DNA of 41,148 nucleotides, taken from UHGV virus genome UHGV-0181186; one strand, given 5' to 3'. Below, one piece after another: positions 28,378 to 36,290 of this stretch. This DNA comes from a virus. The number at the start of each line of letters is the position of its first letter. Within the stretch, counting starts at the first letter, position 1. The translations under genes and the position numbers were made by a program. The notes under the pieces are model-generated. The model searched no databases. It was given only the letters and a program-made list of their open reading frames with translations, and had not been told where the DNA came from.

Positions 28378-29730
28378 ATGTGGAATCCAATTGTTAATGT
28401 AGATATTACATTGAACACCGCAGGAACTACAAGAGAAGGTTTTGGGCTACCACTATTTTTAGCTTCAACAGATAACTTTGAAGAAAGAGTCCGTGGTTAC
28501 ACTTCCTTAACTGAAGTTGCTGAAGATTTCGATGAAAACTCTGCTGCATATAAGGCTGCTAAACAACTTTGGAGTCAGACTCCTAAAGTAACTCAGCTTT
28601 ATATTGGTAGACGTGCTATGCAGTACACTGTATCAATTCCTGATGAGGTTACTGAGAGCACCGACTATTCTTTAACTGTAGCTGTGAGCGGTGGAGTTTC
28701 TCAGCCATTCCAGTACACTTCACAGTCAGAAGATACTGCTGAGAAGGTGCTACAGCAGCTTAAAACTCAGATTGAAGCAGAGCCTTCTGTAAAAGACCTT
28801 GTTACCGTCAATGTAACTGGTGCTGGTGGTTCAGCAACAATGGTAATCACCAAAGCGGGTGACAATGACTTCGTGAAGGTTACCACTACAGCACAAACAG
28901 TGTCAATTGCAAGTACAACTGCTGACACAGCATCGACTGCTCTGGCAGCTATTGAGGCTTATTCAACTGACTGGTATTTCATTGCAGCAGAAGATAGAAC
29001 TCAACAGTTTGTCTTAGCAATGGCTTCTGAGATTCAAGCTCGTAAGAAGATTTTCTTTACAGCTAACTCTGATGTAACAGCCCTACAAGGTACAGAATTA
29101 GCCAGTGCAAATGATGTTCCAGCACAGCTTGCTAAGAGTCAGTACACTCGTACCGTTTGCTTGTGGCATCACACAGCAGCAGAAGACTATCCAGAGATGG
29201 CATACATTGCTTATGGCGCTCCGTATGATGCAGGTTCAATTGCTTGGGGTAACGCACAGTTAACTGGCGTAGCTGCTTCTCTACAGCCATCTAATCAGAG
29301 ACCTCTGACAAGTATTCAGAAGTCAGCTTTAGATGCACGTCACTGTAACTTTATTGACCTTGATGGTGGTGTTCCAGTGGTTCGTAGAGGGATTACTTCT
29401 GGTGGGGAATGGATTGATATCGTCCGTGGTGTTGACTGGTTAGAATCAGACCTGAAAACTTCTCTGAGAGACTTGCTAATTAACCAGAAGGGTGGTAAGA
29501 TTACTTATGATGATACTGGTATTACCCGTATTCGTCAAGTCATTGAAACCTCTCTGCAAAGAGCAGTCAACAGAAACTTCCTGTCATCTTACACAGTTAA
29601 TGTTCCTAAAGCCTCTCAAGTTGCTTTGGCAGACAAGAAAGCTCGTATCCTGAAAGACGTTACCTTCTCAGGTATCTTAGCAGGGGCTATCTTGGATGTT
29701 GACTTGAAAGGTACAGTGGCTTACGAATAA
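28378..29730 (+). CDS. probable tail sheath protein
   Basis: 450-aa ORF immediately upstream of a roughly 150-aa tube-sized ORF, chaperone pair and tape measure gene; call by synteny. Confidence 0.5.
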   Translation: MWNPIVNVDITLNTAGTTREGFGLPLFLASTDNFEERVRGYTSLTEVAEDFDENSAAYKAAKQLWSQTPKVTQLYIGRRAMQYTVSIPDEVTESTDYSLTVAVSGGVSQPFQYTSQSEDTAEKVLQQLKTQIEAEPSVKDLVTVNVTGAGGSATMVITKAGDNDFVKVTTTAQTVSIASTTADTASTALAAIEAYSTDWYFIAAEDRTQQFVLAMASEIQARKKIFFTANSDVTALQGTELASANDVPAQLAKSQYTRTVCLWHHTAAEDYPEMAYIAYGAPYDAGSIAWGNAQLTGVAASLQPSNQRPLTSIQKSALDARHCNFIDLDGGVPVVRRGITSGGEWIDIVRGVDWLESDLKTSLRDLLINQKGGKITYDDTGITRIRQVIETSLQRAVNRNFLSSYTVNVPKASQVALADKKARILKDVTFSGILAGAILDVDLKGTVAYE

Positions 29731-29745
29731 TAGAGGTAAATTGGA

Positions 29746-30192
29746 ATGGCTATGTATCAGCAATATTCCCCTAAAGACGTTGTGTGTAGCTGGAATGGTA
29801 TTGCCATTGAAGGCTTTGCCCCAGACTCATTCTTACGTCTACAGAGAACATCACCACTTGTGACACCAGTTGTAGGTGCAGGTGGTCAAGTTGCTCTGAC
29901 AAGAAATGCAGACAAGACAGGTACTATTGAGATTGAGCTAATGCAGACTTCTCTCTCTAACCAGATGCTTTCTGCAATTCAAGCTAAACAAGACAATATG
30001 GAACTTGAAGAAGATATCTCTTCTAACTTCGTAATCTACGACCCATCAGGCTCTGTTCTGGCAACTGGTATTAATGCTTGGTTGCAGGAATTACCGCAGA
30101 TTGAACTTGGTCGTGACCAGAACTCTAAAACTTGGATTTTTGGTTGTGAGAAGCTAGACTACACTTCTACAATTCCAGCGTCAAGTGTTTAA
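29746..30192 (+). CDS. probable tail tube protein
   Basis: 148-aa ORF after the sheath candidate; followed by a terminator-like hairpin. Confidence 0.5.
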   Translation: MAMYQQYSPKDVVCSWNGIAIEGFAPDSFLRLQRTSPLVTPVVGAGGQVALTRNADKTGTIEIELMQTSLSNQMLSAIQAKQDNMELEEDISSNFVIYDPSGSVLATGINAWLQELPQIELGRDQNSKTWIFGCEKLDYTSTIPASSV

Positions 30193-30204
30193 TAAATCCT
30201 ATAA

Positions 30205-30238
30205 GGGGGAGACTTTAAAAGGTCTTCCCCTTTTTTGT
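30205..30238 (+). terminator. intrinsic terminator or attenuator
   Basis: gggggagac-tttaaaag-gtcttcccc hairpin followed by TTTTTTGTTT. Confidence 0.6.
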
Positions 30239-30265
30239 TTCTTTTAAAAGTATTAAGGAATCACA

Positions 30266-30664
30266 ATGAAAACAGAATCTAGAGTAATTAATGGTAAGAA
30301 AGTAAATATCGTTCTGCTTGGGGCAAGAGATGGTATTAAGATGTCTATGAAGTTGGGTAAAATTGTTGTTCCAACCTTTGCACAGATGCTGTCAAGTCTG
30401 ACTGATAAAGACAAGAAAGAAGCTCCAATGGTTCCATTTAAAGAACTTGTTGAAGCTTGTTTTGACAGAATTGAAGAAATTAACCTTGAAGAAATGGCTA
30501 CATTACTATTTCAAGGGGCAACTGTCGATGACTTCCCACTTAATATTGATACGTACTTCCAAGCAAACTACGGTGAGTTTATTGATTACTTAGCATTTGC
30601 GCTGGAGGCAAACTTCGGAAGTTTTTTCGAAGCAAGCATTTTCAAAAGCCTAACTTCTCAGTAA
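30266..30664 (+). CDS. tail assembly chaperone
   Basis: 132-aa acidic ORF directly upstream of the tape measure gene; contains a T TTT TTC slippery heptamer near its 3' end. Confidence 0.55.
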   Translation: MKTESRVINGKKVNIVLLGARDGIKMSMKLGKIVVPTFAQMLSSLTDKDKKEAPMVPFKELVEACFDRIEEINLEEMATLLFQGATVDDFPLNIDTYFQANYGEFIDYLAFALEANFGSFFEASIFKSLTSQ

Positions 30665-30905
30665 ACATGGGTAACACTCTACAGACACCACTAACTGATG
30701 CTGCTGTAGAGGCAACCTATGAAGAAGCAGACGAGATGAAATTTGTGCTTGCTATTTATGGTATGGAAGGGTGTAAAGAAACACTTGACCAACTCTTTGC
30801 TATGACATTCTCTGATTTATTATCATTGAGACAATTTCTTGAGATTCAGAGGTCGTATAAAGAGGAAATTGCTTACAACGAACTTAGAAGAGCAGGAAAA
30901 ATGTA

Positions 30906-30906
<1 letters not shown>
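30622..30906 (+). CDS. candidate -1 frameshift extension of the tail assembly chaperone
   Basis: A -1 shift at T_TTT_TTC (30622-30628) enters the frame of ORF 30667-30906 with no intervening stop; the ORF ends at the tape measure start. Confidence 0.4.

Positions 30907-36290
<5,384 letters not shown>

Follow-up and report, generated by a model that had tools for sequence, protein, structure and literature searches.

The window analysed here is a 41,148-nt stretch of DNA, the virus genome UHGV-0181186. Between positions 29700 and 31500 it shares 99.5% identity with Escherichia coli O157 typing phage 1, its closest match, and 97-98% with wV8, EC6, Felix O1 and some 250 further Felixounavirus genomes. 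Judged by these identities, the window is a Felixounavirus, that is, a Felix O1-like phage. Felixounavirus belongs to the Ounavirinae, which in turn belong to the Andersonviridae.

Open reading frames together with Pfam and PHROG matches give the gene order of a contractile-tail module, which runs sheath, tube, chaperone, -1 extension and tape measure, all on the plus strand. The tail sheath protein (DUF3383, phrog_205) is encoded at 28378-29730, and the tail tube protein (KPP10_Orf10 / DUF3277-type, phrog_280) at 29746-30192. The tape measure protein, of 742 aa, is encoded at 30906-33134 (Pfam TMP_3, phrog_4036). The tube and tape measure genes flank the chaperone and its -1 extension, as expected of a G/GT-type pair. 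On the 3' side of the tape measure gene, genes at 33134-34272 match a Dit-like family (PF21821) and the cyanophage Pam3 gp18 plug (PF22479); these matches point to a Pam3-type simple baseplate in this contractile-tail phage.

The tube and chaperone genes are separated by a strong terminator-like hairpin of 13 pairs, 6 of them G-C (30203-30232, plus strand). It is followed on its 3' side by the T-run TTTTGTTT, which reaches about 30240, and a terminator is annotated at the same position in the phages Meda and Mordin. Owing to this hairpin, the chaperone and tape measure genes may be transcribed less than the sheath and tube genes. An Rfam scan of 30150-31050 returned just two sub-threshold matches to small RNAs (GibS and DapZ), both of which lie on the terminator hairpin and are probably due to chance; no family matched at the slip site.

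The chaperone gene occupies 30266-30664 and encodes a short form (TAC-N, gpG-like) of 132 aa, with a mass of 14.8 kDa and a pI of 4.8. Residues 9-124 of the 132 match Pfam PF21822 (Phage_TAC_15) with 71.5 bits against a cut-off of 22 (E 1.2e-19). The protein also matches phrog_1613, a tail assembly chaperone family, with E 7.9e-49. PF21822 is carried by every one of the chaperone's 92 database homologues.

Close to the 3' end of this gene lies the slippery heptamer T_TTT_TTC (TTTTTTC, 30622-30628, plus strand), the single heptamer of the form X_XXY_YYZ that is in phase within the chaperone gene. It is read in the zero frame as AG_T TTT TTC and covers the codons of Ser119-Phe120-Phe121. A first-pass annotation of the window had placed it in the zero frame 14 codons before the chaperone stop (30662-30664), and this is indeed the distance from the codon that contains its first T.

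The -1 frame has an upstream stop, TGA, at 30583-30585 and is open from 30586 to a TAA at 30904-30906. The last base of this stop is also the A of the tape measure ATG at 30906, so that the two codons overlap. Over 79 nt (30586-30664) both the zero and the -1 frames are open. From the heptamer onwards, the -1 frame encodes an extension (T-like domain) of 92 codons plus a stop (30628-30906). The extension contains a 79-aa ORF (30667-30906) that is annotated as a separate gene and matches phrog_4963, also a tail assembly chaperone family, with E 2.8e-55. The first-pass annotation had further proposed that the -1 frame is open through this ORF to the tape measure start, which the frame analysis confirms, and that a slip would yield a fusion of about 210 aa. 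The computed length is 213 residues (121 + 92), corresponding to a predicted long form (TAC-NC, gpGT-like) of 24.3 kDa at join(30266..30628,30628..30906).

Natural in-frame fusions were sought by comparing the 213-aa sequence with 5.8 billion proteins. None was present among the 92 proteins returned, all of which were short forms of 124-136 aa, and this comparison thus yielded no independent confirmation. A structure predicted for the fusion with AlphaFold2, run without an alignment, had a mean pLDDT of 33.6 and is unusable.

A long open -1 frame past a stop codon is normal for tightly packed phage genes. The window has 63 ORFs of 80 aa or more, and 21 of them are followed by a -1 frame that stays open for at least 50 codons beyond the stop. 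A slippery heptamer inside the overlap is found in just one of these 21, the chaperone gene. For the 26 codons of that overlap, base composition predicts about 0.13 heptamers.

Very probably, a -1 ribosomal frameshift at T_TTT_TTC gives rise to two forms of the tail assembly chaperone, a short form of 132 aa and a long form of 213 aa. Under this model, the majority of ribosomes would end at the stop codon at 30662-30664 and release the short form. A minority would slip back by one base with a pair of tRNA-Phe on the heptamer at 30622-30628, one on TTT in the P site and one on TTC in the A site. Both would re-pair with TTT in the -1 frame, and translation would go on through 30628-30903. The product would consist of chaperone residues 1-121 joined to a 92-residue C-terminal domain.

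The functions of the two products can be modelled on gpG/gpGT of phage lambda and gpE/gpE+E' of phage P2. By this analogy, the tape measure protein (742 aa) would be coated with many copies of the short form. The long form, present in few copies, would also bind the tube protein via its C-terminal domain, and would nucleate the polymerisation of the tube and then of the sheath. By the same analogy, neither form would be expected to remain in the virion. Because of the lambda gpGT-gpV model, the tail tube protein encoded at 29746-30192 is the likely partner of the T-like domain (PMC5009743). What the analysis shows directly is the layout of the sequence, the identity of the genes, the conservation of heptamer, phase and -1 frame in very distant relatives, and the want of a conserved start codon in the downstream ORF; the slippage itself, its efficiency and the roles of both products are inferred.

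An unbiased set of relatives was gathered by tblastn with the chaperone protein; it covers eight lineages with 100% to 27% protein identity. Among them are Suspvirus, Mooglevirus, Yersinia phage P778, Pectobacterium phage Wc4, Erwinia phage phiEa21-4 (Kolesnikvirus) and the Vequintavirinae A5-4, Av-05 and CR8. All eight lineages have TTTTTTC in phase within the overlap. Their -1 frame extends over a further 227-278 nt and stops within 0-66 nt of where the tape measure gene starts, and their +1 frame is shut 10-58 nt beyond the chaperone stop.

A scan of IMG/VR added 80 further loci, with identities down to 23%. The pattern NNT TTT TTY occurs in 80 of the 80, with AGT or TCT as the Ser codon and TTT as the first Phe codon throughout. 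The peptide pattern used as a seed included [SC]FF, which fixes these residues by ascertainment, and many of the loci are closely related; therefore the choice of codons is independent evidence in this set and the residues are not. The loci were collapsed to 55 distinct extension sequences. An in-phase heptamer with an open -1 frame is found in all 55, down to about 24% protein identity; the extensions are 69-124 codons long, and nearly all of them stop at the next large ORF.

On the sequence evidence, the conservation of the heptamer and the -1 frame is far beyond chance. The first-pass annotation had likened the locus to the chaperone and extended-chaperone arrangement found upstream of tape measure genes in tailed phages, a comparison supported by PF21822, gene order and conservation. 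It had also named loss of the heptamer in relatives as an observation that would count against the idea. The outcome is strongly in favour of the idea: every relative examined has T_TTT_TTY in phase, together with a -1 frame that is open as far as the tape measure start. The locus thus shows everything that a frameshift of this type leads one to expect at the level of sequence.

The conservation of the heptamer is partly confounded with that of the protein sequence. Ser/Cys-Phe-Phe is conserved at this point, and the two Phe residues are invariant at the protein level. In a codon alignment of eight lineages, a fraction of 0.3-0.65 of the same-residue pairs agree in their codon as well across most of the gene; at residues 117-128 this fraction climbs to 0.89-0.93. 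This jump indicates that the dual constraint starts at the heptamer (codons 119-121) rather than at codon ~107, where the open -1 window begins. Mooglevirus and the window, for example, are 81% identical overall, yet the heptamer and the sequence that follows it are nearly invariant between them.

The conservation bears on a reading of the locus in which heptamer and open -1 frame are mere remnants without function and the short chaperone alone matters. In favour of this reading, no experimental evidence for the long form in Felix O1-like phages, whether at the protein level (mass spectrometry or western blot) or from reporters, was found in the searchable literature. Against it, 55 of 55 lineages, from families whose proteins are about 25% identical, keep an extension of 69-124 codons open as far as the start of the tape measure gene, and the probability of 80 open codons arising by chance at the base composition of the window is ~0.004. 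The comparison of sequences effectively refutes this reading, which can be regarded as extremely improbable.

In a second alternative, the locus holds two independent genes. The 79-aa ORF would be translated from its own ATG at 30667, for instance by re-initiation, and would act as a separate small chaperone, and the heptamer would be incidental to the codons for Ser-Phe-Phe. The ATG does lie just 2 nt 3' of the chaperone TAA, and most GenBank and RefSeq records annotate the two ORFs separately. The invariant Phe-Phe could also maintain a T-rich string by itself; against this, NNT TTT TTY is fixed in all 80 IMG/VR loci despite the availability of the synonymous codons AGC, TCN and TTC.

The start codon fares poorly under comparison. 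Unlike the neighbouring genes, the ATG at 30667 is not preceded by a Shine-Dalgarno sequence. An ATG is found near the zero-frame stop (-6 to +30 nt) in just 10 of 55 lineages, and any start codon in 21 of 55. Phage phiEa21-4 has no start codon over 116 nt, and ATA replaces the ATG in one Felixounavirus contig that is otherwise nearly identical. The -1 frame, on the other hand, is open back to the heptamer in every lineage. On comparative grounds, the lack of a conserved start speaks against separate translation of the 79-aa ORF, and the two-gene reading is very unlikely.

The sequence between the heptamer and the ATG can be compared at the protein level too. The -1-frame peptide RSKHFQKP, which spans this interval, is kept in phiEa21-4 and has a similar form in P778. 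In the GenBank record of phiEa21-4, a downstream stretch of 235 nt is left without annotation.

The contig mentioned above, IMGVR_UViG_3300045988_004167, is an 87-kb Felixounavirus sequence in which ATA at ~1604 corresponds to the ATG at 30667-30669 of the window. The other 90 of the 91 aligned bases are identical to those of the window, and the heptamer and the -1 frame are intact. In this contig, the putative start codon of an independent gene has been lost naturally.

The heptamer U_UU.U_UU.C is a validated shift-prone sequence in E. coli, where IS elements make use of it and where genes have fewer copies than expected (PMC4066793). When it has no stimulators, frameshifting in an E. coli reporter study is given only as above 0.10% (PMC4066793).

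The first-pass annotation had suggested a search for a downstream stimulatory structure, and none was found in the window. The 62 nt 3' of the heptamer fold at -3.4 kcal/mol (z +1.29) and the 55 nt at -3.2 kcal/mol (z +0.8). Folding covered stretches of 62, 92 and 106 nt about the site, both in the window and at the corresponding places in seven relatives, and z-scores were calculated for 60 distinct contexts; across this material no downstream stimulatory structure was found in Felixounavirus. Neither a stem-loop nor a pseudoknot lies 5-9 nt past the heptamer in the window, the place such structures take in dnaX-type signals. Because the window lacks a downstream structure, the slip efficiency is probably low, a few percent or less. 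Taken together with the reporter figure of above 0.10%, this lack means that it could be very low.

Two other foldings of the window were considered and set aside. A stem-loop at ~30667-30720 has a z-score of -1.74, which is not significant, and begins 38 nt 3' of the heptamer, too distant for a stimulator. Its 8-bp core is formed by CUCUACAG/CUGUAGAG, and its outer pairs take in the ATG of the 79-aa ORF. A hairpin that encloses the heptamer (CUUCGGAA/UUUCGAAG) was dismissed since it is not kept in P778 or phiEa21-4.

On the 5' side, the Shine-Dalgarno-like pentamer GGAGG (30604-30608, plus strand) ends 13 nt before the heptamer. This spacing is inside the range of 6-17 nt that Sharma et al. 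used for Shine-Dalgarno-like stimulators in E. coli (PMC4066793). Felixounavirus, Suspvirus, Mooglevirus, Wc4 and Av-05 have the pentamer; P778, phiEa21-4, A5-4 and CR8 lack it. It coincides with the codons of a conserved Leu-Glu-Ala. At most, it may be a lineage-specific enhancer of frameshifting.

A different flank is found in a group of distant, GC-rich IMG/VR relatives (L075-L093), which have a 171-aa chaperone of about 25% identity. They carry a 9-bp stem, CCGCGAGCG/CGCTCGCGG, that starts 7 nt past the heptamer, with z-scores of -2.2 to -3.8. In L075, for example, it is at 1589-1615, spanning ~7-35 nt past the heptamer. In L067 the 9-bp stem is retained through a register-compensating change. 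This hairpin has the classical geometry of ribosomal -1 frameshifting and therefore supports a ribosomal mechanism for the family; it is a stimulator that Felixounavirus lacks.

The same protein could in principle be made without any slip of the ribosome. If RNA polymerase sometimes added one U in the run of six, standard translation would give the identical 213-aa product, as AGU UUU UUU CGA encodes Ser-Phe-Phe-Arg. Some relatives have runs of T7 or T8, and in the T7 genome of Escherichia phage CL1 the 213-aa product is encoded in a single frame. Directly 5' of the T-run in the window there is a weak hairpin of 6 pairs, two of them G-U, that was flagged as terminator-like. Slippage aided by a hairpin is an established mechanism (reviewed in PMC5009743). 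In E. coli genes, homopolymeric U7 is under-represented in all three frames, and transcriptional slippage is among the reasons put forward (PMC4066793).

Several observations speak against transcriptional slippage as the source of the long form. The run is just 6 T in 37 of 47 distinct sequence contexts, among them the window. A run of this length is shorter than those at which bacterial RNA polymerase is known to slip efficiently; programmed transcriptional slippage typically involves a homopolymer of 8-9 or more, or else a strong upstream hairpin by a shorter run. The window has neither a long run nor a strong upstream hairpin, since the hairpin it has is weak and not conserved. In the distant relatives, moreover, the strong hairpin lies 7 nt 3' of the heptamer, where it suits ribosomal frameshifting instead. 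The conservation of phase does not discriminate between the two mechanisms because it is set by the conserved residues. On balance, it is very improbable that the polymerase rather than the ribosome accounts for the arrangement.

Positions 369-1010 of Escherichia phage CL1 (OK040806.1) correspond to 30266-30906 of the window, and the deposited sequence has T7 and not T6 at the slip site. The chaperone and its extension form one in-frame ORF of 213 aa in CL1, which is annotated as 'tape measure chaperone' and is identical to the predicted fusion. No other in-frame fusion was found. The additional T is either an error in sequencing the homopolymer or a genuine variant. If it is real, the ratio of short to long form would be inverted in this phage.

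An unlikely reading combines elements of the above. The heptamer may be a frozen element common to a very large set of contractile-tail phages (Andersonviridae, Vequintavirinae, Vandenendeviridae and uncultivated lineages), with the stimulator that sets the efficiency swapped from lineage to lineage; alternatively, the long form in T6, T7 and T8 lineages may arise partly from polymerase slippage. If stimulators were swapped, Felix O1-like phages, Suspvirus and Mooglevirus would use pairing of GGAGG with 16S rRNA, the GC-rich relatives would use the downstream hairpin, and others would use no stimulator. The T7 genome of CL1 hints at a part of the polymerase in T6/T7/T8 lineages.

The proposal of a -1 ribosomal frameshift in this gene is not new. 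The site is an ordinary member, already annotated and published, of the best-known class of phage recoding sites. Joined frameshift coding sequences are present at the same place in Salmonella phages Mushroom (NC_041923, 641 nt) and Meda (MH586731, 641 nt) and in Citrobacter phage Mordin (638 nt); the one in Meda is labelled 'Tape measure chaperone frameshift product'. The genome announcements of Moogle (PMC4319497) and Michonne (PMC4591319) both report a -1 translational frameshift in the tape measure chaperone. These annotated Felixounavirus and Mooglevirus phages share the genes, the heptamer and the -1 frame with the window; their sequence around the site is identical or nearly so, with no difference of substance. 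Most other Felixounavirus records, including that of typing phage 1, list two separate genes. They should instead carry one short coding sequence and one joined frameshift coding sequence, not two chaperone genes.

A wider distribution was described in a December 2025 paper on Pseudomonas phage Adele, which reports an invariant GTTTTT and an uninterrupted -1 frame in the Vandenendeviridae and finds the motif in 231 Andersonviridae genomes as well (PMC12846349). The sites in Vandenendeviridae (Pakpunavirus, Adele) and Andersonviridae are among the closest counterparts of that of the window, Felixounavirus itself being in the Andersonviridae. Compared with that paper, the present analysis finds the motif also in Vequintavirinae (A5-4, Av-05, CR8) and in many uncultivated lineages. 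It also finds flanks that differ between lineages, with an upstream GGAGG in some and a downstream GC hairpin in others.

The three Vequintavirinae are rV5-like phages in which an in-phase TTTTTTC is followed by a -1 extension of 117-124 codons. Their records list only separate hypothetical proteins, and the frameshift appears to be unannotated in them.

Similar sites are known from well-studied phages. In lambda, as in the window, the chaperone gene is directly 5' of the tape measure gene, and a low-level -1 shift near its 3' end, like the one predicted here, makes a minor form that is extended at the C-terminus. Lambda uses the heptamer G_GGA_AAG and has a non-contractile tail. Its gpG and gpGT, produced in a ratio of about 30:1, do not occur in virions (Levin 1993; Xu, Hendrix and Duda 2004, 2013, 2014; PMC5009743). 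The lambda protein has no detectable sequence similarity to the chaperone of the window.

Phage P2 (gpE/gpE+E'; Christie et al. 2002) resembles the window in having a contractile tail and a -1 frameshift in a chaperone gene between the tube and tape measure genes, but its chaperone belongs to another protein family. The frameshift efficiency in P2 is reported to be 2- to 3-fold above that of lambda (PMC5009743). The dnaX-type signal of E. coli is a further comparison, given the possible Shine-Dalgarno-like GGAGG on the 5' side of the window heptamer. It differs in that the window has no downstream hairpin, and in that the pentamer is not kept across the family and doubles as codons.

The site matters mainly for the annotation of these genomes. 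It is a textbook recoding signal, retained between phage families in which the chaperones have only about one residue in four in common, and the ratio of chaperone forms that it would determine is considered critical if tails are to assemble correctly.

A homologue of the chaperone is also found outside the phage genomes. A protein of 126 aa with 46% identity and a PF21822 match is encoded on a 1.88-Mb contig of Buttiauxella noackiae, which suggests a related prophage or tailocin in a bacterial chromosome.
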